From the NCBI GenBank assembly GCA_050486285.1, contig JBJHCZ010000010.1:11034-75033 (forward strand): 64,000 bases of DNA, given 5' to 3'. How positions within the stretch are numbered: the first letter of the stretch is position 1; each line of letters opens with the position of its first letter. Positions 1,452 to 31,887 of the stretch are shown piece by piece. The notes beneath the pieces were generated by a model. It had not been told where the DNA came from. It ran no database searches and was given only the letters and a program-made list of their open reading frames with translations. This DNA comes from Chromatiales bacterium. Lineage in GTDB: Bacteria; Pseudomonadota; Gammaproteobacteria; SZUA-140. The translations under genes were made by a program, and so were the position numbers.

Positions 1452-2477
1452 ATGAAGAGCTCAGCCACCGAGTTTCTGAAGCCCCGCGTGGTAGACGTTC
1501 AGGTGATCAACGAGCGCCACGCGAGGATTACGCTGGAGCCGCTCGAGCGCGGCTTCGGCCATACCCTGGGCAACAGCCTGCGCCGCATCATGCTGTCGTC
1601 GATGCCGGGCGTCGCCGTGACCGAGGTCGAGATCGACGGCGTGCTGCATGAGTACACGACGATCGAAGGCGTGCAGGAGGATGTCATCGACATCCTGCTC
1701 AACGTCAAGGGCATTGCGATCCGCATGGACGGCCGCGAGGAAGCGACGCTGACCCTGAAGAAGAAGGGCAAGGGCGCCGTGCTCGCGCGCGACATCGAGC
1801 TGGTCAGCGACGTCGAGATCATCAATCCCGATCACGTCATCGCCCACCTCACCGAGGTCGGAGAGCTCAGCATGACGCTGAAGATCGAGCGCGGCCGCGG
1901 TTATCAGCCCGCCTCGATCCGCAGCGAGATCACCGAGGGCGCCGCCAGCCGACCGATCGGCCGACTGCAACTCGATGCCTCGTTCAGCCCCGTGCGCAGG
2001 GTCAGCTACGTCGTCGACACCGCCCGCGTCGAGCAGCGCACCGACCTCGACAAGCTGATCATCGACCTCGAGACCGACGGCAGCGTCGACCCTGAGGAGA
2101 CGATCCGTCGCGCCGCGCGCATCCTCAAGAACCAGCTGACGGTGTTCATCGATCTCGAGAGCCCGGAGCAGGAAGAGCCGGTCGCCTTGCCCGAGGAGAT
2201 CGATCCGATCCTGCTGCGTCCGGTCGACGATCTCGAGCTGACGGTGCGTTCCGCGAACTGCCTCAAGGCCGAGAATATCTATTACATCGGCGACCTGATC
2301 CAGCGCACCGAGGTCGAGCTGCTGAAGACGCCGAACCTCGGCAAGAAGTCGCTGACCGAGATCAAGGACGTCCTTGCCTCCCACGGTCTGTCGCTCGGGC
2401 TGCGCCTCGAGAACTGGCCGCCGGCCGGCCTCAAGAGCAGGGACAGGGAAAACGAACAGGAAGTGGCGTCCGTCTAG
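1452..2477 (+). CDS. rpoA: DNA-directed RNA polymerase subunit alpha
   Basis: 341-aa ORF: [47 protein letters not shown] at the N-terminus and a C-terminal-domain motif [45 protein letters not shown]. Confidence 0.97.
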
Positions 2478-2518
2478 GTCGCCTTCCCCGCCAGCCGCGG
2501 GCAATCCGGAGCACAACG

Positions 2519-2914
2519 ATGCGTCATCGCAAGAGTGGCAGAAAACTGAGTCGCACCAGCAGTCATCGCAAGGCGATGTACCGCAATATGGCGGTTTCCC
2601 TGGTGCAGCACGAGATCATTCGCACGACCCTGCCGAAGGCCAAGGAACTGCGGCGCGTCGTCGAGCCGCTGATCACGATGGCGAAGAACGACGGCGCGAG
2701 CAGGCGCCGGACGGCCTTCGACCGCATCCGCGATCGCGCTGCCGTGACCAAGCTGTTCGATGAACTCGGCCCGCGTTATCGCGACCGTCCCGGCGGCTAC
2801 CTGCGTATCCTCAAGTGCGGCTTCCGTCCCGGCGACAGCGCGCCGATGGCCTACGTCGAACTGGTGAGTCGTCCCGAACCGGCCGCGGCCGGGGCGCAAC
2901 AGCGCGCCGAGTGA
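2519..2914 (+). CDS. rplQ: 50S ribosomal protein L17
   Basis: 131-aa ORF: [53 protein letters not shown], canonical L17, last gene of the alpha operon. Confidence 0.97.
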
Positions 2915-2916
2915 CG

Positions 2917-2949
2917 AAAAAAACCGGGCCTGAGCCCGGTTTTTTTTTT
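2917..2949 (+). terminator. Rho-independent terminator after rplQ, with potential to act in both directions
   Basis: Stem ACCGGGC (2923-2929) / GCCCGGT (2934-2940), loop CTGA. An A7 run precedes it and a T-run follows to 2949. It begins 3 nt after the rplQ stop. Confidence 0.9.
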
Positions 2950-3109
2950 GCGCCTTTGCGCAGGCGCAAGTGCGCGATTCACCGACCGAACTTGTATTGA
3001 AAGCGCAGACTGCATACCATCGATCAGAATTCGACGGTGGCATGGTGATGATCGTGCTTTTTACGCATTTCGGTTCCGCGGGGCCTTATCCCGGGCAGGG
3101 GGCGCAGGC

Positions 3110-4213
3110 GTGAACAACATCCTGCGTCGCTGGGTCCGCAAGTACTTCTCCGATCCCGAGGGCGTGATCCTCGGCGTGCTGCTGCTGGCCGGCTTCGCGA
3201 TCGTAATCTTCATGGGCAATATGCTGATGCCGGTGCTCGCGAGCATCGTCGTCGCCTATCTGCTCGAAGGGCTCGCCGGCATGCTGGAAAGGCGCGGCGT
3301 GCCGAGATTTGCCGCGGTCATGATGGTGTTCCTGCCGTTCCTCGCCTTCCTGACCTTCCTGCTGCTCGGTCTGCTGCCGCTGCTGACGACCCAGCTGACC
3401 GAACTGGTGCAGCTGCTGCCGAGCATGATCGCGCGCGGCCAGCAGTTGCTGCTGCGCCTGCCTGAGCAGTATCCGAACTTCGTCTCCGAGGCGCAGATCC
3501 AGGAGATCATGCAGCAGATCCGGGCCTCGGTCGGCACCATCGGCCAGAACCTCGTCTCGCTGTCGGTCGCGACCATCACCAGCGCGGTCACGCTGATCGT
3601 CTACCTGGTGCTGCTGCCGGTGCTGGTCTTTTTCTTCCTCAAGGACAAGCGGCTGATCATCGACTGGATCGCCGGCTACATGCCGCGCGAGCGCGGCCTG
3701 GCGACGCGGGTCTGGCAGGAGATGGAGCAGCAGATAGGCAATTACGTGCGCGGCAAATTCGTCGAGATCCTGATCGTCGGCGCGGTCTCGTATCTCGTGT
3801 TTGCGCTGCTCGGCCTCAATTTCGCGATGTTGCTCGGCGCCCTGGTCGGTCTGTCGGTGATCATCCCCTACGTCGGGGCGATCGTCGTCACTTTCCCGAT
3901 CGCGATCATCGCCTATTTCCAGTGGGGCTGGGGCGAGGAACTCGCCTGGGTCATGATCGCCTATGCGATCATCCAGGCCCTCGATGCGAACGTGCTGGTG
4001 CCGATGCTGTTTTCCGAGGCGGTCAACCTGCACCCGGTCGCGATCATCATTGCGGTGCTGGTGTTCGGCGGCATCTGGGGCTTCTGGGGCGTTTTCTTCG
4101 CGATCCCGCTGGCGACGCTGGTCAAGGCGGTGATCAATGCCTGGCCGCGCGCGCTGGAAGAGGAAGCGGCGGCGCCTCCCGATCCCGCCGCGCCCGAAGT
4201 CAAAGGGCCTTGA
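3110..4213 (+). CDS. AI-2E family (PerM/YhhT-like, UPF0118) membrane transporter
   Basis: Multi-pass membrane ORF (VNNILRRWVRKYFSDPEGVILGVLLLAGFAIVIFMG...FGGIWGFWGVFFAIPLATLVKAVINAW). The track ORF starts at 2948 inside the rplQ terminator, so in-frame GTG 3110 is the first plausible start. The start remains uncertain. Confidence 0.8.
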   Translation: MNNILRRWVRKYFSDPEGVILGVLLLAGFAIVIFMGNMLMPVLASIVVAYLLEGLAGMLERRGVPRFAAVMMVFLPFLAFLTFLLLGLLPLLTTQLTELVQLLPSMIARGQQLLLRLPEQYPNFVSEAQIQEIMQQIRASVGTIGQNLVSLSVATITSAVTLIVYLVLLPVLVFFFLKDKRLIIDWIAGYMPRERGLATRVWQEMEQQIGNYVRGKFVEILIVGAVSYLVFALLGLNFAMLLGALVGLSVIIPYVGAIVVTFPIAIIAYFQWGWGEELAWVMIAYAIIQALDANVLVPMLFSEAVNLHPVAIIIAVLVFGGIWGFWGVFFAIPLATLVKAVINAWPRALEEEAAAPPDPAAPEVKGP

Positions 4214-4667
4214 CCGCCTCCAGCACCTCGTCGGCGTGTCCCTCGACCTTGACCTTGCGCCATTCGCGGCGCAGGACGCCATCGGCATCGATCAGAAAGG
4301 TGCTGCGCTCGATGCCGCGCACCTGCTTGCCGTACATGTTCTTCATCCGGATCACGTCGAACAACTTGCACAGCTTCTCGTCGTCGTCCGACAGCAGGTC
4401 GAACGGGAAGCCCTGCTTTTCGCAGAACGATTCATGCGAGCGGACGCTGTCGCGCGACACGCCGAGGATCACGGTCTTCGCGCGTTTGAACGCGGCATGG
4501 CGGTCGCGGAAGTCCTGTCCCTCGAGGGTGCAGCCCGGGGTGTTGTCCTTCGGATAGAAATACAGGACGACGTGCTTGCCCCGCAGGTCCGACAGGCGGA
4601 TGGTCTTGTCGCCGGTCGCGGCGGCCTCGAAATCGGGGACGGGCTTGTCGAGCGCGATCTTTGCCAT
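4200..4667 (-). CDS. bcp: thiol peroxidase Bcp (peroxiredoxin)
   Basis: 155-aa ORF with VLYFYPKDNTPGCTLEG (peroxidatic Cys motif) and a Bcp-like overall sequence. Its 3' end overlaps the convergent AI-2E gene by 14 nt. Confidence 0.93.
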   Translation of the reverse strand: MAKIALDKPVPDFEAAATGDKTIRLSDLRGKHVVLYFYPKDNTPGCTLEGQDFRDRHAAFKRAKTVILGVSRDSVRSHESFCEKQGFPFDLLSDDDEKLCKLFDVIRMKNMYGKQVRGIERSTFLIDADGVLRREWRKVKVEGHADEVLEAVKAL

Positions 4668-10000: not shown

Positions 10001-10951
10001 GACCTGCACAGGCGCTGGTCCGAGACCAGCTACCGGATGCAGGCGCTGCGCGACAACCCGGAGACCGCCCGCGAGGAATATGACCGCCTGCTCGACGAGG
10101 CCGACGGCGGCCTGCACGCGGCGCTGACCTTCGATCCCGACGAGCCGGTGGTGGCGCCGCAACTGCTGCGCGGGGCCCGCCCGAGGATCGCGATCCTGCG
10201 CGAGCAGGGCGTCAACGGCCAGCAGGAGATGGCCGCCGCCTTCGACCGCGCCGGCTTCAGCGCGATCGACGTGCATATGAGCGATCTCGCGAGCGGGCGC
10301 CGTCGCCTCGACGACTTCGACGGCATCGCCGCCTGCGGCGGCTTCTCCTATGGCGACGTCCTCGGCGCCGGCGAGGGCTGGGCCAAGTCGATCCTGTTCA
10401 ATCCCGCGCTGCGCGACGCCTTCGCGGGGTTTTTCGCCCGCCCCGACAGCTTCGGCCTCGGGGTCTGCAACGGCTGCCAGATGATGGCGAACCTGCGCGA
10501 GCTGATCCCCGGCGCCGCGGCCTGGCCGCATTTCGTCCGCAATGCCTCGGAGCAGTTCGAGGCGCGGCTTTCGATGGTCGAGGTGCTGCCCTCGCCGTCG
10601 TTGTTCTTCGACGGCATGGCCGGCTCCAGGCTGCCTGTTATCGTGTCGCACGGCGAGGGCCGCGTCGAGCCACGGCATGGCCACGGGGAAGACGCGCTGC
10701 GCGCTGCCGGCCTCGCCGCGCTGCGCTACGTCGATCACGACGGCCGCCCGGCGGCGCGCTACCCGGCCAATCCGAACGGCTCGCCCGGCGCCCTCACCGC
10801 ATTCACGACCGGAGACGGCCGTTTCACGATCATGATGCCGCATCCGGAGCGGGTCTTCCGCAGCGTCCAGTTTTCGTGGCATCCGCCCGGTTGGGGCGAG
10901 GACAGCCCGTGGATGCGGCTGTTCCGCAATGCGCGGACCTGGCTCGGTTAG
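7052..10951 (+). CDS. purL: phosphoribosylformylglycinamidine synthase, single-chain large form
   Basis: 1299-aa ORF with [40 protein letters not shown] and a C-terminal glutaminase domain (GVCNGCQMM). Confidence 0.97.
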
Positions 10952-11011
10952 CGAGAAATTCCGTCAAGTGTCTGTATTTTAATAGTTTTATTTAATTTCG
11001 CGAAAGGCCGC

Positions 11012-12100
11012 GTGGCGGATTCGGTGTTTCCTGATACCGCTGGCGGGCGTTTTGCTATAATGCGCGCTATGACACGGATTTCCCGTTATTTTCCTGTAGT
11101 CGCCGCGTTCTGCGCGCCGCTGATGCTGGCCGCTGCAGTAGCCGCCTGGGGCTACGGACAGCAGCGCCCGGCCATCGACGCGCTGCTGGACTTCGAGACC
11201 GGCGCATGGCTGGCGGGGACGTCGCCGCTGCGTCTGGAACAGGTTCAGGTTCGCGATGCGCGTGAACTCCGCCGGCTGTTCGCCGATCTGGATTATGCCT
11301 GGCCCCCGGCGCCCGGTCCGTCGATCCCCCGCATCGCCGTCGATCCCCTGCCCGAGGATTTCACCTGGCCCAGCAACATCGAGCACAAGAAGCGCATGTT
11401 TTTCAAGGTGCTGATGCCGCTGGCGCTCGCCGAGAACGCACGCGTGCTGCGCCAGCGCGAGGCGCTGGAGGCCGCGATCTCCGTGTTCGCGCGCGGTGAA
11501 GCAATCGATGAGGACCACCCCGCCTGGCAGCGGATCGCCGTCATGGCCCGCGACTACCAGCTCGACGGCGAGCCGGGCGATCCCGCGCTGCACGCGGCCC
11601 TGCGTCTGCGGGTCGATGTGGTGCCGGTCGAGCTGATGCTGGCGCAGGCGGCGAACGAGAGCGGCTGGGGGGATTCCCGCTTCGCGCGCGAGGGCAACAA
11701 CCTGTTCGGGCTATGGACCTACCAGCCCGGGAACGGCATCGTGCCGGCGTCCCGGCCGGAAGGGGAGACCTACGCAGTGCGTCGCTACGACACCCTGCGC
11801 GAGTCGGTGCGCTCACACATCTTCAACCTGAACATCGGCCATGCCTATGAGGATCTGCGGGCGATGCGCGCCGCGATGCGCGAGAGCGGCGAGGAACTCG
11901 ACGCCATGGCCCTCGCCGGCGGCCTCGAGCGTTATTCGATCCGCGGCCAGGAGTACATCGACGAGATCCGCGCGATCATCCGTTTCAACGACCTCACCAC
12001 CGCGGCCCGCGCGCAGTTGCGTGAGGCGCCGCGCGCCGTCAGGACGGCCTCCGCCGCGCATCCGGTCAATCTGCAGATAGCCTCAACCAGGGCTGACTGA
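11012..12100 (+). CDS. Bax-like protein with a mannosyl-glycoprotein endo-beta-N-acetylglucosaminidase domain
   Basis: LMLAQAANESGWGDSRFAREGNNLFGLW plus the downstream region resembles E. coli Bax and the FlgJ C-terminal glucosaminidase domain. The real start is probably ATG 11060 or 11069 (MTRISRYFPVVAAFCAPLMLAAAVAAWG signal-anchor). An extended -10 TGcTATAAT lies at 11053-11061. Confidence 0.75.
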   Translation: MADSVFPDTAGGRFAIMRAMTRISRYFPVVAAFCAPLMLAAAVAAWGYGQQRPAIDALLDFETGAWLAGTSPLRLEQVQVRDARELRRLFADLDYAWPPAPGPSIPRIAVDPLPEDFTWPSNIEHKKRMFFKVLMPLALAENARVLRQREALEAAISVFARGEAIDEDHPAWQRIAVMARDYQLDGEPGDPALHAALRLRVDVVPVELMLAQAANESGWGDSRFAREGNNLFGLWTYQPGNGIVPASRPEGETYAVRRYDTLRESVRSHIFNLNIGHAYEDLRAMRAAMRESGEELDAMALAGGLERYSIRGQEYIDEIRAIIRFNDLTTAARAQLREAPRAVRTASAAHPVNLQIASTRAD

Positions 12101-15960: not shown

Positions 15961-17538
15961 ATGCCCCTGAACCCCGAAACGGCCCGCCGCCGCACCTTTG
16001 CGATCATCTCGCACCCGGACGCCGGCAAGACCACGCTGACCGAGAAGCTGCTGCTGTTCGGCGGCGCAATCCAGCTCGCCGGCGCGGTCAAGGGGCGCAA
16101 GGCCGCGCGCCACGCGACCTCGGACTGGATGGCGCTGGAACAGCAGCGCGGGATCTCGGTGACGACCTCGGTGCTGCAGTTCCCGTATCACGACGCCGTC
16201 ATCAACCTGCTCGACACCCCCGGCCACCAGGATTTCTCCGAGGACACCTACCGCGTGCTGACCGCGGTCGATTCGGCGCTGATGGTCATCGACAGCGCGA
16301 AGGGCGTCGAGGAACGCACGATCAAACTGATGGAGGTATGCCGCTTGCGCGACACGCCGATCATCACCTTCATCAACAAGCTCGACCGCGAGGGGCGGCC
16401 GCCGGTCGATCTGATCGACGAGATCGAGGCGGTGCTGAAGATGCCGTGCGCGCCGGTGACCTGGCCGATCGGCATGGGCAAGGGCTTCAAGGGCGTGTTC
16501 GACCTGCTCCATGACCGCGTGCAGCTGTTCAGCCCGACCCACGGCGGCCGCATCAAGAGCGGCGAGATCATCGAGGGCATCGGCAATCCGCGCCTCGACG
16601 AACTGCTCGGCACGGTCGCGGCCGAACTGCGCGAGGAAGTCGAGCTGGTGCGCGGCGCCAGCCAGGCCTTCGATCTCGACGCCTATCGCAGGGGCCGCCA
16701 GACCCCGGTGTTCTTCGGTTCGGCGATCAACAACTTCGGCATCCGCGAACTGCTCGACGCCTTCGTCGGCTGGGCGCCGGGTCCGCTGTCGCGGCCGACC
16801 GTGACGCGGATCGTCACGCCGGACGAGGACAAGTTCACCGGTTTTGTATTCAAGATCCAGGCGAATATGGATCCGGCGCACCGCGACCGCATCGCCTTCC
16901 TGCGTATCTGTTCGGGAAAATACACGCGCGGCATGAAGGTCTGGCATACGCGGCTCAAGCGCCAGGTGCAGATCCCGAACGCGATCACCTTCATGGCCTC
17001 GGAACGCGAACACGCCGACGAGGCCTGGCCCGGCGACATCATCGGCATCCACAACCACGGCACCATCGTCATCGGCGATACCTTCACCCAGGGCGAGGAC
17101 CTGAAGTTCACCGGCATCCCGGACTTCGCGCCGGAGCTGTTCCGTCGCGTCGTACTGCGCGACCCGATGAAGATGAAGGCGCTGCAGAAGGGTGTCGACC
17201 AGTTGTCGGAGGAGGGCGCGACCCGCGTGTTCCGCCCGCTGCTCGGCAACGACATCGTCATCGGCGCCGTCGGGGTCTTGCAGTTCGACGTCGTCGCGTA
17301 CCGGCTCAAGCACGAGTATTCGGTCGACTGCGCCTACGACAACGTCCAGGTCGCGACCGCGCGCTGGGTCAACTGCAAGGATGAAAAGAAACTCACCGAA
17401 TTCCGCAACAAGCTCCCCGAGCATCTCGCGCTCGACAGCGGCGGGGCGCTGGTCTATCTCGCGCCGACGCGCGTCAACCTGCAACTGACGATGGAGCGCT
17501 GGCCGGAGATCGAGTTTCGGGCGACGCGGGAGCATTGA
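15961..17538 (+). CDS. prfC: peptide chain release factor 3
   Basis: [74 protein letters not shown], canonical RF3 GTPase. ATG 15961; the track ORF over-extends to 15754. Confidence 0.96.
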
Positions 17539-17942
17539 TGCCTGTGTCGCGCCCAGCTTTTGCAGGCCCGCGATACTGATCCACGCGCGGTGCGAACAAT
17601 GCTATACGGAATCGGGATGGCATCGGCGAGCTGACGTTACACCGAGGTTCCATCTCGCCGTCACGGCGCGCCTTCATGGAGTATCCAGCGATGTCTCGGG
17701 GCCGAAATCGGCCGGATGAATGGCTGCGCGCGCAGCAGGTGTCAGCGTGTGAAAGCAGATTTAATACCTTGTTTTACAAGTGCGATTGAATATTGGTTCC
17801 CGGAATCGTTATTCGCGAACGGTGCGGTTGTTACCCGGCATGACGGAATTCCGTCTTCATCCATGAGAGTCTTGAAGGTATCCTAGCGAAAAGGACAGGG
17901 GCGGGGGAAGGCTGGTCTGTGCTACACGGCATCGGCCTATCT

Positions 17943-17971
17943 TTGATATTCCCGCATCCACCTAATATTAA
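17943..17971 (+). promoter_or_regulatory. putative sigma70 promoter in front of the 345-aa ORF
   Basis: TTGATA (17943-17948), 17-nt spacer, TATTAA (17966-17971), directly abutting the GTTGGGC core at 17973. Sequence prediction only. Confidence 0.3.
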
Positions 17972-18012
17972 TGTTGGGCACCGTAAACCCTAGTCCAAGG
18001 TAGAGGGAACGA

Positions 18013-19050
18013 ATGTCATCGGACGACGAAATGAATCTCCTAATGGAGCAGCACCAAAAGGCTATGGCCGAGCGCGCTCGTTCTGAACTCGAAAGATCAT
18101 CCCATTTGATAGAGAGATTTACAGAAATAGCGGCGATCAGAGGAGTTTCCCTCTCTCCAGATTCATTTAGCTATATTCCAAAGATTGGAATCGTTGCCTC
18201 AGCCCCGGGACTTGCCAAGGACCTTTTGGGATTTGCCGCGACAGAAAGAGATGGCCTGTTCGCATACGACGATATCGCGGCGCGCTTTCCGCCGAGTCAG
18301 TTCAGAGAAGGTTACTTCATTGGGCATGACTACATGCTTATGGCTCACCCGTACTATAGGCGCGGAATGCACCCACTGAATAACTGGGCGCCAAGATTTA
18401 TTAGCCTTTTCTGGGGGTTGGATTCGCGGAGTATCAAGAAATTCATCGCCATTGATGAGGACCGCGTACGAATCAACGTCGACAACTCTGCCTATGTAGA
18501 ATTGGATACTTGGTATGGCGCGCCATTCAACGAAGACATCAGCAGGATAAAAGAAGGGACAGTAAAGCTAAGGCCGCCCGCCGATCTTGATGCGCGCTAT
18601 GTAGACCTATTGTTCGACCAGGCTTACTGCCTTGACATCAAATGGGGCGAAGCGAGGGAAATCAAGACATTCCAGGCGCTTGAGATCAAGACGCACGACG
18701 CCAATCTCTTCATCGATGGAAAAACGCTATTCCCCGCACGTTATCTGCACGCGGAATTCGACTTGTTAAGAGGCACGTTCAGGCATTTTGATGGGGCGAT
18801 CCAGCTATTTACTGAAGATGAATATCTTCGCCGCCGCGACGCTGATTTCAACTTTCCATCAAAGAACATTGAACACATTAAGGCAAGGTCAAGGAAAGTC
18901 TTCAAGCTCAACGGCGCAATACCTGTCAAGACTTGGGTAGAGCTCTGTTGCCACTTTTTCACTGGGAACCCCCTTACCTTCGAGTATTTCAATGGTTCTT
19001 ATCCGGAGCACATCACCGACATCGTTGATAAGGTAAGGGCGCGTTCCTGA
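18013..19050 (+). CDS. hypothetical protein, 345 aa, no family recognised (cassette ORFan)
   Basis: Long uninterrupted ORF in an AT-richer region where spurious ORFs are unlikely. GAGGGA lies upstream of ATG 18013. No signal peptide or TM segment, and no motif I can name. Confidence 0.75.
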   Translation: MSSDDEMNLLMEQHQKAMAERARSELERSSHLIERFTEIAAIRGVSLSPDSFSYIPKIGIVASAPGLAKDLLGFAATERDGLFAYDDIAARFPPSQFREGYFIGHDYMLMAHPYYRRGMHPLNNWAPRFISLFWGLDSRSIKKFIAIDEDRVRINVDNSAYVELDTWYGAPFNEDISRIKEGTVKLRPPADLDARYVDLLFDQAYCLDIKWGEAREIKTFQALEIKTHDANLFIDGKTLFPARYLHAEFDLLRGTFRHFDGAIQLFTEDEYLRRRDADFNFPSKNIEHIKARSRKVFKLNGAIPVKTWVELCCHFFTGNPLTFEYFNGSYPEHITDIVDKVRARS

Positions 19051-19062
19051 TGACTCATCGGT

Positions 19063-19129
19063 GCCCAACACATCATTCCACCGGACCTGCCGCCTATCCG
19101 CGGCGCGCCGGAGAATTCAGACGTTGGGC
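19063..19129 (+). other. attC-like recombination site 1 (67 bp)
   Basis: R'' GCCCAAC 19063-19069 and R' GTTGGGC 19123-19129 (perfect 7-bp complement). Unpaired spacers ACATCA / TTCAGAC. L-box-like TTCCACCGG / CCGGAGAA with bulged bases. Terminal stem GCCGC/GCGGC. Confidence 0.5.
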
Positions 19130-19142
19130 AGAATAGTCACGC

Positions 19143-19171
19143 TTGACGATAATCACGCTACGCGATACTAT
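19143..19171 (+). promoter_or_regulatory. putative higBA promoter, possibly giving a leaderless transcript
   Basis: TTGACG (19143-19148), 17-nt spacer, TACTAT (19166-19171). The higB ATG at 19177 lies only 5 nt after the -10 and has no SD. A direct repeat TCACGCT (19137-19143 and 19153-19159) flanks the -35 and may be an operator. Confidence 0.45.
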
Positions 19172-19176
19172 TTGGT

Positions 19177-19455
19177 ATGATTAGATCGTTTAAGTGCTCT
19201 GACACAGAATCTTTGTCTAGAGGAATTCGCGTAAGGCGGTTTGTGAATATTGCGGCAGTGGCTCGACGAAAATTGCGGCAGATGGAGATCGCTAGCCGGT
19301 TGGATGATCTGAAGGTCCCGCCCGGGAACCGACTAGAGGCCCTTAAGGGCAAGCGTTCTGGCCAGTACAGCATCCGAATAAACGATCAATGGCGCGTCTG
19401 TTTCCGATGGTCGGAGGCGGGAGCGGAAGAAGTTGAGATCGTAGATTACCACTGA
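19177..19455 (+). CDS. higB: HigB-family toxin (plasmid maintenance system killer protein, RelE/ParE superfamily)
   Basis: 92 aa: MIRSFKCSDTESL...PPGNRLEALKGKRSGQYSIRINDQWRVCFRWSEAGAEEVEIVDYH, a typical HigB pattern ending in DYH. Confidence 0.9.
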   Translation: MIRSFKCSDTESLSRGIRVRRFVNIAAVARRKLRQMEIASRLDDLKVPPGNRLEALKGKRSGQYSIRINDQWRVCFRWSEAGAEEVEIVDYH

Positions 19456-19466
19456 GGTAAATAATT

Positions 19467-19805
19467 ATGAGAAAACTTGAGCCCGTTACACCTGGCGAGC
19501 TTCTGTCAGAGGAGTTTCTCAAGCCAATGGCACTGAGCCAGTATCGACTGGCCAAAGAAATTGATGTGCCTGCGCAGCGTATCAGTGAGATTGTTGCAGG
19601 TAAACGAACGATCACTGCTGACACTGATTTGCGGTTATGCCGGTTCTTTGGTTTGTCTGCTGGTTATTGGCTACGAGCCCAGGCAGCCTTCGATACAGAG
19701 GTTGCGGAGCGTCAGATGGGGCCAGTGCTGAGAAGAATTAAGCCTTGGGTTGCAGATGCTGCCCAACAAGGCGCTCCAGCTGATGCCGCAAAGCGGCGCA
19801 GCTGA
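19467..19805 (+). CDS. higA: HigA-family antitoxin (XRE-type HTH)
   Basis: 112 aa: TPGELLSEEFLKPMALSQYRLAKEIDVPAQRISEIVAGKRTITADTDLRLCRFFGLSAGYWLRAQAAFD, a typical HigA/VapI antidote. It starts 12 nt after higB. Confidence 0.9.
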   Translation: MRKLEPVTPGELLSEEFLKPMALSQYRLAKEIDVPAQRISEIVAGKRTITADTDLRLCRFFGLSAGYWLRAQAAFDTEVAERQMGPVLRRIKPWVADAAQQGAPADAAKRRS

Positions 19806-19821
19806 CCGCTGGCGTTAGGGC
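19761..19821 (+). other. attC-like recombination site 2 (61 bp), overlapping the higA 3' end
   Basis: R'' GCCCAAC 19761-19767 pairs with GTT(A)GGGC 19814-19821 (7 bp, one bulged A). Inner stems CAGCTG 19777-19782/19799-19804 and GCCGC 19785-19789/GCGGC 19793-19797 with loop AAA. Confidence 0.45.
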
Positions 19822-19867
19822 TACAAGAGAAAATACTTGGATACCATGGAAAAAGTAGGTTTCATAA

Positions 19868-20234
19868 TTAGGTGTCTGGCGAAACGACGACTTGGGCAGT
19901 CCGGCCGGCCAGCGGCCGCCCGGCTATTCCGGGGAGCACCGGATGCAGTGCCGGATCCTCGAACTCGATCCGCCCCGCAAGCTGGCCATCAGCTGGGGGA
20001 AGCAGCAGCGACGTTTCCTTCGAGCTGGAGCCGAAGGGCGCGAGGGTACGGCTCACCGTCACCCATCGGCGCCTGCCCGATCGCGCGACCCTGCTGAACG
20101 TCAGCGCCGGCTGGCACGCGCACCTGGACGTTCTGGTCGCCTGTACGACAGATCAGGCGCCGGAGGAATCGTTCTGGGAAAGCTGGAGCCGCCTCAAGCA
20201 GGAATACGGCGGGCGCCAGCCTCAATCGCCGTAG
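19868..20234 (+). pseudogene. SRPBCC (AHSA1/START-like) family gene remnant, 5'-truncated and frameshifted
   Basis: One frame reads ...GEHRMQCRILELDPPRKLAISWG. The next frame continues DVSFELEPKGARVRLTVTHRRLPDRATLLNVSAGWHAHLDVLVA...FWESWSRLKQEY. The frames switch near the G5 run at 19995-19999. About 35-45 N-terminal residues expected for the family are absent. Confidence 0.55.
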
Positions 20235-30295: not shown

Positions 30296-30371
30296 TGGCG
30301 CTCCCTAGGGGAATCGAACCCCTGTTCCCGCCGTGAGAGGGCGGTGTCCTAGGCCGCTAGACGAAGGGAGC
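30296..30371 (-). tRNA. tRNA-Glu (anticodon CUC)
   Basis: Reverse complement GCTCCCTTCGTCTAGCGGCCTAGGACACCGCCCTCTCACGGCGGGAACAGGGGTTCGATTCCCCTAGGGAGCGCCA. It has a 7-bp acceptor stem, anticodon loop CTCTCAC (CTC), a T-loop GGTTCGATTCC and an encoded CCA. It is very close to E. coli tRNA-Glu except for the anticodon. Confidence 0.95.
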
Positions 30372-30449: not shown

Positions 30450-31887
30450 GGGAATCCGCAGGCGTCGGCGCGCCGCTCAAGCCCTTGATAATAATTCAAG
30501 AATCTCTCAGGTAAGGATCCCCGACATTAGCACGCCGGTCGTTATCCCGCGTTCCGGGCACAATATCTCGCGCAAGGGCATCAGCGAGAACGCCCTGAAG
30601 GTCCTGCATCGTCTCAAGGAGGCCGGTTACGGCGCCTACCTCGTCGGCGGCTGCGTGCGCGACATGCTGCTCGGCCGTGAGCCGAAGGACTTCGATGTCT
30701 CGACCGACGCGAAACCGGAGGAGGTCAAGCAGGTCTTTCGCAACTGCCGTCTGATCGGCCGGCGCTTCCGCCTCGCCCATGTCCACTTCGGTCGCGAGAT
30801 CATCGAGGTCGCGACCTTCCGCGCCCGTCATGTCGGCGACGAGGACGAGGATGGCCGCCTGATCGAGAACGGGCGCATCATCCGCGACAATGTCTACGGC
30901 ACGATCGAGGAAGACGCCTGGCGGCGCGACTTCACGATCAACGCGCTCTATTACAACATCAGCGACTTCAGCGTCGTCGATTATGTCGGCGGCGTCGAGG
31001 ACATCCGCGACGGCGTGCTGCGCCTGATCGGCGATCCGGCGGTGCGCTTCCACGAGGATCCGGTGCGCATGCTGCGCGCGGTGCGTTTCGCGGTCAAGCT
31101 CGGTTTCCGCATCGATCCGGCGGTCGAGGCCGCGATCCATGAACATGCGGCGCTGCTGGGCGGGATCTCGCCGGCGCGTCTGTACGAGGAAGTACTGAAG
31201 CTGTTCCAGGGCGGCAGCGCGGAACAGACGATGGAGATGCTGCGACATTACCGGCTGTTCGAGCAGCTGTTCCCGGAGACGGAGCGCTGTCTCGACGACC
31301 CCGAGCAGGGCGATTTTCGCGCGCTGCTGACACGCGCGCTGGCGAATACCGACGCCCGCGTCGGCGAGGGCAAGCCGGTGACGCCGGCCTTTCTCTATGC
31401 CGCGCTGCTGTGGGGACCGATGCGCGCCGAGGCGCGGCGGTTGCAGGCGGCGGGGGCGCCGGAGATCTCCTCGCTGCAGCAGGCCTCGCGTGATGTCATG
31501 CAGGCGCAGAGCCAGCATGCGATCCTGCCGCGCCGGTTCGCGTCGCAGATGCGCGAGATCTGGATATTGCAGCCGCGCCTGCAGCGCAATTCCGGCAAGC
31601 GCGCCCTGCGCCTGTTGCAGCACCCGCGCTTTCGCGCCGCCTATGACTTCCTGCTGTTGCGCGCGGAGACCGGCGAGGACCTGGCCGACCTGGCCGAGTG
31701 GTGGACCAACTTCCAGCAGAGCGACGAGGCGCGCAGCGAACTGCTGGCGGCGCCGCGGGCGGACAACCGGGCGAGCGACGACGAGTCCGATACAAAATCG
31801 CCGGCGCGCCGTCGCCGTCGTCGGCGCCGCCGGGGCGGCAGCGCGCGCAAGGGGCAAGCGGCGGCGGAATCCGCCGGGGAGTCCTGA
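30442..31887 (+). CDS. pcnB: poly(A) polymerase I
   Basis: ISENALKVLHRLKEAGYGAYLVGGCVRDMLLGREPKDFDVSTDAKPEEV...RRDFTINALYY plus a basic C-terminal tail. The start is uncertain: TTG 30442 lies inside the tRNA promoter, and in-frame ATT 30526 with AGGA 8 nt upstream is an alternative (see findings). Confidence 0.9.
   Translation: MYKGIRRRRRAAQALDNNSRISQVRIPDISTPVVIPRSGHNISRKGISENALKVLHRLKEAGYGAYLVGGCVRDMLLGREPKDFDVSTDAKPEEVKQVFRNCRLIGRRFRLAHVHFGREIIEVATFRARHVGDEDEDGRLIENGRIIRDNVYGTIEEDAWRRDFTINALYYNISDFSVVDYVGGVEDIRDGVLRLIGDPAVRFHEDPVRMLRAVRFAVKLGFRIDPAVEAAIHEHAALLGGISPARLYEEVLKLFQGGSAEQTMEMLRHYRLFEQLFPETERCLDDPEQGDFRALLTRALANTDARVGEGKPVTPAFLYAALLWGPMRAEARRLQAAGAPEISSLQQASRDVMQAQSQHAILPRRFASQMREIWILQPRLQRNSGKRALRLLQHPRFRAAYDFLLLRAETGEDLADLAEWWTNFQQSDEARSELLAAPRADNRASDDESDTKSPARRRRRRRRRGGSARKGQAAAESAGES

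Follow-up and report, generated by a model that had tools for sequence, protein, structure and literature searches.

Groups of integron gene cassettes that lie apart from an integrase gene are a common and already described class of element, the clusters of attC sites that have no integron-integrase (CALINs; 2016, PMC4889954; Neron et al. 2022), recognised by at least two attC sites close together, by IntegronFinder default within 4 kb, and by no intI nearby. As many as 2961 CALINs were catalogued in 21,105 genomes, 1362 of them with two cassettes, and cassette insertion at attG sites (GWT) was demonstrated in the same study (bioRxiv 10.1101/2022.09.11.507474). Here we analyse a low-GC island between prfC and valS in 64,000 nucleotides of DNA ("the window": positions 11,034 to 75,033 of contig JBJHCZ010000010.1, assembly GCA_050486285.1) from a Chromatiales bacterium. 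We put at roughly 0.93 the probability that this island is a genuine integron gene-cassette array fragment, with two complete cassettes, a third of which only a stub is left, and no integrase gene in the window.

The island (17974-19872) has a GC content of 50.4% as against 65.6% for the whole window, in which it is the sole clearly low-GC stretch. On its left lies prfC, ending at 17538, and on its right a fragment of an AHSA1/SRPBCC gene, past which come a DUF2914 gene and then valS on the opposite strand. A previous reading of the letters alone, hereafter the original prediction, had termed the island a "CALIN-type or decayed array". Since its attC sites are recognised by an independent model, its borders fall at homology breakpoints and no intI is found in the window, this label is, on the sequence evidence, the correct one. 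Like described CALINs, the island carries two attC sites on the same strand, 632 bp apart, each closing a cassette with co-oriented genes, it is integrase-less within the window, and it is small, as are nearly half of them. Unlike them, the array has as its last member a third cassette that is truncated and joined to a host-like pseudogene, and it was called with a model of our own (R1) rather than with IntegronFinder.

Two attC sites close the cassettes

Two palindromes had been proposed as attC sites, and all the motifs involved were found in their places: GCCCAAC at 19063-19069 and 19761-19767, GTTGGGC at 17973-17979 and 19123-19129, and GTTAGGGC at 19814-19821. By themselves these 7-mers are not over-represented (the plus strand of the 64 kb has 2 GCCCAAC and 4 GTTGGGC, where a base-composition estimate predicts about 7 each); it is their arrangement that is non-random, and just one strict RYYYAAC...GTTRRRY pair with 50-150 nt between its members occurs in the window, that of site 1. 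A strict regular-expression scan for attC found site 1 alone, matched it on both strands and hence gave no orientation, and missed site 2; a covariance model was used instead. The two sites are composed as follows.

19063-19129, plus strand: attC 1 (67 bp), with R'' GCCCAAC, spacer ACATC, L'' ATTCCACCGG with a bulged C, variable stem, L' CCGGAGAAT, spacer TCAGAC and R' GTTGGGC
19761-19821, plus strand: attC 2 (60-61 bp), with R'' GCCCAAC, spacer AAGGC, L'' GCTCCAGCTG with a bulged C, L' CAGCTGACC, spacer GCTGGC and R' GTT(A)GGGC

The model R1 was built from nine attC sites of class 1 integrons (aadB, aadA2, gcuF, blaVIM-2, aacA4, dfrA12, aac(6')-29a, aac(6')-29b and arr-3), cut from plasmid integron arrays adjoining intI1 and including no sequence of the window or its relatives. 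Its structure is that of the textbook: an R box, an L box in which a single base bulges, and two spacers, 5 and 6 nt long. Run on both strands of the window with all filters off (128 kb of strand), R1 recovered 19063-19129 at 33.1 bits (E 3.1e-6) and 19761-19821 at 30.8 bits (E 1.3e-5), both at full length and on the plus strand, these E-values being rough only; the next best match reached 12 bits with an E-value of about 1. Thus just the two predicted sites were significant, and the calls are strand-specific. In 21.6 kb from the nearest relative R1 matched nothing. Of the details given for attC 1, the length of 67 bp and the cores stood, while its start lies 12 nt past the stop codon at 19048-19050 and not 13. 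The weak third match (30486-30532, 38% GC), which is situated about 115 nt from a tRNA-Glu gene (30296-30371), takes in no more than the outer cores and most likely reflects chance.

Aligned to R1, both sites have cores of 7 nt and spacers of 5 nt and 6 nt, and at model position 16 a C bulges from the L'' side (a G on the recombinogenic bottom strand); each L box contains one non-standard pair. The R'' and R' cores of site 1 (GCCCAAC/GTTGGGC) are complementary at 7 of 7 positions, and those of site 2 (GCCCAAC/GTT(A)GGGC) pair with one bulge. The bottom strand of attC 1 folds at -18.6 kcal/mol (z -2.8), and the folds of 17940-18012 and 19826-19905 were no better than those of shuffled sequence. 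Among 36 R1 matches compensatory changes were seen in all 9 L-box pairs, with 93.9% of cells paired, in an alignment that was fitted to R1 and is hence biased towards its structure; the outer four R-box pairs were looser, as hybrid sites predict.

The window sites share with the attC of class 1 cassettes of the aadA, aadB and aacA4 type the order RYYYAAC, 5 nt, L'' with bulged C, variable stem, L', 6 nt and GTTRRRY, as well as the length of 60-67 bp, and in its central GCCGC...GCGGCGCG stem site 1 is similar to aadB and aadA. In contrast, class 1 resistance cassettes have GYCTAAC/GTTAGAY cores and carry resistance genes, whereas the window has GCCCAAC/GTTGGGC cores and cassettes without any such gene. 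In one comparison locus, L041 (loci fetched for comparison are numbered with an L), an attC at 10936-11004, behind an Acidovorax homologue of the protein encoded by cassette 1, matches the attC of class 1 aacA4 almost exactly in the outer parts; the motif common to both, GCCTAACCCTTCCATCGAG...CTCATxTCAAACGTTAGA, hints at a shared lineage between an environmental attC and that of a clinical resistance cassette.

Hairpins as stable as these, situated right 3' of genes, are terminator-like, and terminators, repetitive extragenic palindromic (REP)-like elements or chance inverted repeats in an island that came by another route would also sit well with cores that are not over-represented as such. 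Yet no T-run terminator was detected, the R1 matches are strand-specific, homology breaks at G|TT in four independent contexts, as described below, and the same genes are elsewhere surrounded by arrays of 4-13 such sites; we consider this explanation highly improbable.

Cassette borders coincide with homology breakpoints

The cassettes that follow from the two sites and from a lone core on the left are these.

17973-17979, plus strand: lone R' core GTTGGGC, left junction and start of cassette 1 (G|TTGGGC), where homology to L001 starts exactly at 17973
17974-19123, plus strand: cassette 1 (1150 bp), one open reading frame and attC 1, from the span of homology to L001
19124-19814, plus strand: cassette 2 (691 bp), promoter-like sequence, higB, higA and attC 2, from homology borders in three other arrays

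The sizes of about 1150 and 690 bp that had been predicted were thus correct. The lone core is present as proposed, 33 nt ahead of the ATG at 18013 rather than 34. More telling, the predicted borders agree within 1-2 nt with the points at which homology to the same cassettes in other arrays breaks off: these breakpoints fall at 17973, 19122-19130 and 19816-19817 in comparison to L001, L059, L060 and L061, with different neighbours each time. For cassette 1, blastn aligned 17973-19130 of the window, from the lone core to the R' core of site 1, with L001 9966-11118 at 79.6% nucleotide identity. Cassette 2 matched L060 5340-6034 at 97.0%, L061 561-1256 at 96.8% and L059 6078-6795 at 98.9%, over a span (window 19122-19816) that runs from the R' core of attC 1 to just past the GTT of attC 2, and homologous attC matches lie 3' of higA in all three loci. 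Upstream of CGTTGGGC and downstream of GCGTT the sequence was unrelated in every pair compared; therefore the neighbours of the higBA unit differ, with three distinct downstream partners and four upstream ones across the contexts, and the unit is bounded by the G|TT points that had been predicted.

Because the bases past G|TT in any R' of an array are part of the cassette that follows, an R'' flank should be more complementary to the R' before it than to that of its own site. Indeed, 17972-17983 is complementary at 12 of 12 positions to 19059-19070, the R'' side of the attC of cassette 1 itself, and 19123-19134 at 11 of 12 to 19756-19767. Scored over 8 nt, the two window cassettes reach 8/8 and 7/8 with their own partner versus 5/8 and 2/8 in situ, and the means for 32 cassettes of these arrays are 5.5 and 3.75, respectively. 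We infer that each cassette would once have been circular, the IntI tyrosine recombinase recognising the folded bottom strand of attC and inserting the circle at G|TT, as established integron biology has it.

No integrase gene in the window

The integrase queries were IntI1, which we checked to be 100% identical to annotated plasmid intI1 genes, and the integrase of L060, an integron integrase by TIGR02249 (352.6 bits, cutoff 265) that, across residues 15-265, shares 59% identity with IntI1. With these, tblastn found no intI in the 64-kb window, that is, in 17.9 kb on one side of the array and 44 kb on the other, as had been claimed from the letters; the same queries gave nothing in the homologue loci L001-L045. 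As to the parts of a complete integron, there is no intI in the window and no promoter-like site in the left flank, attI being a site that is not recognisable from sequence. With no integrase nearby, the cassettes would be frozen unless IntI were supplied in trans.

Among the comparison loci, the integrase gene of L060 lies directly upstream of an array with at least 13 attC matches, which include the 97%-identical higBA cassette. This gene (2993-3859) is 3'-truncated beside glmS and its product is without the C-terminal ~70 residues, catalytic end included. The array of L060 (3860-13454) is rich in toxin-antitoxin (TA) genes, namely Phd/ParE, BrnTA, HicAB and Gp49/HI1420, and has 51.5% GC where its host flank has 68.5%, a contrast like that seen in the window. 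The 9.6-kb contig L059 consists of co-oriented small genes only, with at least 10 attC matches. This array carries an identical HigA and also, at 2372-4326, a DarT-NADAR (DarTG) pair between the attC matches 2294-2362 and 4330-4397.

Several points weigh against reading the island as a piece of an integron. The attC calls depend on R1, with its rough E-values, and not on the model and thresholds of IntegronFinder. The R' of site 2 reads GTTAGGG, or GTT-A-GGGC, and so deviates from GTTRRRY; this bulged A is expected, because the bases past G|TT come from the third cassette. That both sites function as bottom-strand recombination substrates is a prediction. The search covered the window and an intI may lie elsewhere in the genome, and the contexts of these cassettes yielded no intact integrase, that of L060 being truncated. 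Lastly, the left flank may be an attI, an attG or neither. We nevertheless retain the cassette array fragment as the reading of the island.

The right end is cut through a third cassette

Past attC 2 the array stops short.

19815-19874, plus strand: cassette 3 stub (~60 bp), the 5' end of an LprI-domain cassette with its ATG at 19846, cut at about 19874-19878
19900-20234, plus strand: AHSA1/SRPBCC pseudogene (PF08327), 5'-truncated and frameshifted

The stub was recognised by the 90.7% identity of window 19802-19874 to L060 8093-8167, which comprises an attC R' core and the start of a 192-aa PF07007 LprI gene. In the pseudogene, positions 67-123 of the 125 of PF08327 are read in one frame (31.4 bits) and positions 44-69, weakly (14.7 bits, E 0.038), in another frame upstream; positions 1-43 are absent and the frameshift lies near profile position 67-69. 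Its 3' end and the stop of the DUF2914 gene, which is convergent with it, overlap. Since the cassette 3 homology ends near 19874-19878, with the AHSA1 pseudogene after it, the right border is a deletion or illegitimate join through cassette 3 and the 5' part of AHSA1 and not an integrase product. A fourth motif at 19889-19899 had been proposed as a related core. It reads GACTTGGGCAG, without the G of GTT, and as a remnant of attC or attI it was rejected, as it has no R1 match and lies 15 nt past the end of the cassette 3 homology; the resemblance is probably due to chance.

The left junction and the origin of the array

To the left of cassette 1 there is a single feature.

17544-17972, no strand: non-coding left flank, with no attC and no remnant of intI

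The GC content of this side is 62% at 17539-17700 and 51% at 17701-17972. The flank gave no blastn match in any of the fetched loci, its last 24 bases had 0 exact copies in a metagenome scan, and tblastn of IntI1 and the L060 integrase against it yielded only noise. The homology to relative L055 ends at 17543, that to relative L062 at 17539. The left border, 17973/17974, has the form of an integrase-type G|TT junction, with no attC upstream. The bases CACCTAA-TATTAAT-GTTGGGC loosely resemble the simple-site layout of attI1, which is no more than a lead.

The interval 3' of prfC differs in each of the relatives compared (L055, L056, L057 and L062). The prfC of the nearest relative is 91% identical to that of the host, and in this locus (L055, which has the nearest prfC) the stops of prfC and valS are 35 bp apart. 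In L062, whose prfC 3' end and DUF2914 gene are 90.5% and 80% identical to the window at the nucleotide level, 750 bp with DUF3185 and DUF1328 genes, a pair coding for small membrane proteins, replace window 17540-20219, and in the more distant L056 and L057 other genes, NMT1/RF-1-domain, are found past prfC. Among the genomes compared, the 2.68-kb block 17540-20219, pseudogene included, thus occurs in this one only, and the prfC-valS interval is hypervariable, a putative hotspot of recombination or insertion.

What these two ends say on the origin of the array is less clear-cut. That it is a decayed chromosomal integron, or an array fragment imported with its flanks, whose intI-attI platform and distal cassettes were deleted, has in our judgement about an even chance. 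The junction on the right cuts both cassette 3 and AHSA1, the whole 2.68-kb block with its pseudogene is missing from the relatives, integrons with a damaged intI do exist among carriers of the same cassette (L060), and CALINs have been attributed to integrase loss or rearrangement (bioRxiv 10.1101/2022.09.11.507474). However, the 430 bp left of the crossover bear no resemblance to intI, whereas in L060 the start of intI lies ~75 bp from the first crossover, if the position of attI that we read from its sequence is right. The general record is of little help to this origin as well, 95% of CALINs not adjoining recognisable intI pseudogenes (bioRxiv 10.1101/2022.09.11.507474).

Alternatively, an integrase supplied in trans would have placed the first cassette at an attG site (GWT), the others entering at its attC and the distal end being deleted later, a course that we regard as the weaker candidate and rather doubtful. 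The left junction, ...AATG|TT with no attC or intI upstream, fits GWT, attG insertions are efficient and were proposed by Loot et al. as the source of single attC sites lacking integron-integrases (SALINs) and of small CALINs (bioRxiv 10.1101/2022.09.11.507474), and two cassettes are what 1362 of the 2961 CALINs contain. In its bare G|TT left border without attC or intI the window is like the genomic insertions mediated by attG that Loot et al. describe (bioRxiv 10.1101/2022.09.11.507474), and it could be a natural example of them; it differs in that the matching right half of attG is absent. Indeed, the distal half of attG, which would be the proof, is deleted, and GTT fits an attI crossover as well. 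In addition, the junction has on its left 272 bp that look foreign (51% GC) and are missing in the relatives, and therefore the target would not have been ordinary host DNA. The smaller share of probability that these two histories leave falls to some other origin.

The higBA cassette

Within cassette 2 the following features are recognised.

19143-19171, plus strand: sigma-70-like promoter TTGACG-17-TACTAT, 5 nt before the ATG of higB, a pattern match only from a consensus scan
19177-19455, plus strand: higB toxin gene, 92 aa (PF05015 HigB-like_toxin, 65 bits, E 9e-18)
19467-19805, plus strand: higA antitoxin gene, 112 aa (TIGR02607 antidote_HigA, 96.5 bits, cutoff 47.7; PF01381)

By gene order and domains higBA is a predicted type II TA system HigBA, in which the toxin gene comes first and is separated from higA by 11 nt. 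The promoter scan of the region gave 2 matches, which is no more than in shuffled sequence (mean 2.0). As had been noted from the letters, the second site overlaps the 3' end of higA: the last ~15 codons (AAQQGAPADAAKRRS) lie in the 5' half of attC 2 (19761-19805). HigA is 111-112 aa long in nearly all of 120 homologues among the matches listed (77-100% identity), and since this length is kept the tail encoded by attC would travel with the gene.

TA cassettes are known from sedentary chromosomal integrons, e.g. the higBA of the Vibrio cholerae superintegron, and the window likewise has a toxin-first higBA with a promoter-like sequence and an attC, in a cassette that also recurs in the TA-rich arrays L059 and L060. 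Unlike the superintegron, the window comes from an uncultured high-GC gammaproteobacterium and holds an array fragment only, for which a stabilising role is extrapolated. Here higBA would probably act as an addiction module hindering loss of the segment.

A conserved protein in cassette 1

The single gene of cassette 1 is the following.

18013-19050, plus strand: gene for a conserved protein of 345 aa, defined by its family of homologues

This reading frame had been called an ORFan, which does not hold, as it has 783 homologues at E<=1e-3, with identities of up to 80%, in Proteobacteria, Bacteroidota and Acidobacteriota. The protein had no match in Pfam, NCBIfam, PADLOC or PHROGs, and its AlphaFold2 model (18 sequences; pLDDT, the predicted local distance difference test, 64.8; pTM, the predicted template modelling score, 0.66) retrieved nothing from the PDB with Foldseek at E<=0.001. 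We collected 38 distinct contexts of homologues, 36 of them loci from a scan of one genome per species and 2 from look-ups of encoding contigs, and in six (L034, L035, L040, L041, L010 and L001) same-strand R1 matches or an attC-like site adjoin the homologue.

Some neighbourhoods of the homologues (L001, L005, L007) are defence-like. One homologue lies in the cargo of a Tn7-like element (TnsA/TnsB/TniB/TniQ) together with ThiF/Multi_ubiq and metallophosphatase genes, and others are found right after a type I restriction-modification operon or beside FRG and SEFIR/TIR genes. It is a speculative thought that the 345-aa protein may define an uncharacterised family of single-gene anti-phage defence, or of another stress-adaptive function, that resides in integron cassettes and defence islands.

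Discussion

The island between prfC and valS adds one small CALIN, in an uncultured high-GC gammaproteobacterium, to the thousands that have been catalogued, and it is an ordinary example of two and a bit cassettes. Its attC sites were correctly recognised from sequence alone, without tools, and that call is reliable. One higBA cassette recurs, at 97-99% identity, in four different arrays, which shows that cassettes have moved recently in that community. The lead most worth following is the 345-aa protein of cassette 1, which has no annotation: it belongs to a widespread family that is absent from the annotation libraries, its neighbourhoods suggest defence, and it is a reasonable candidate for phage resistance.

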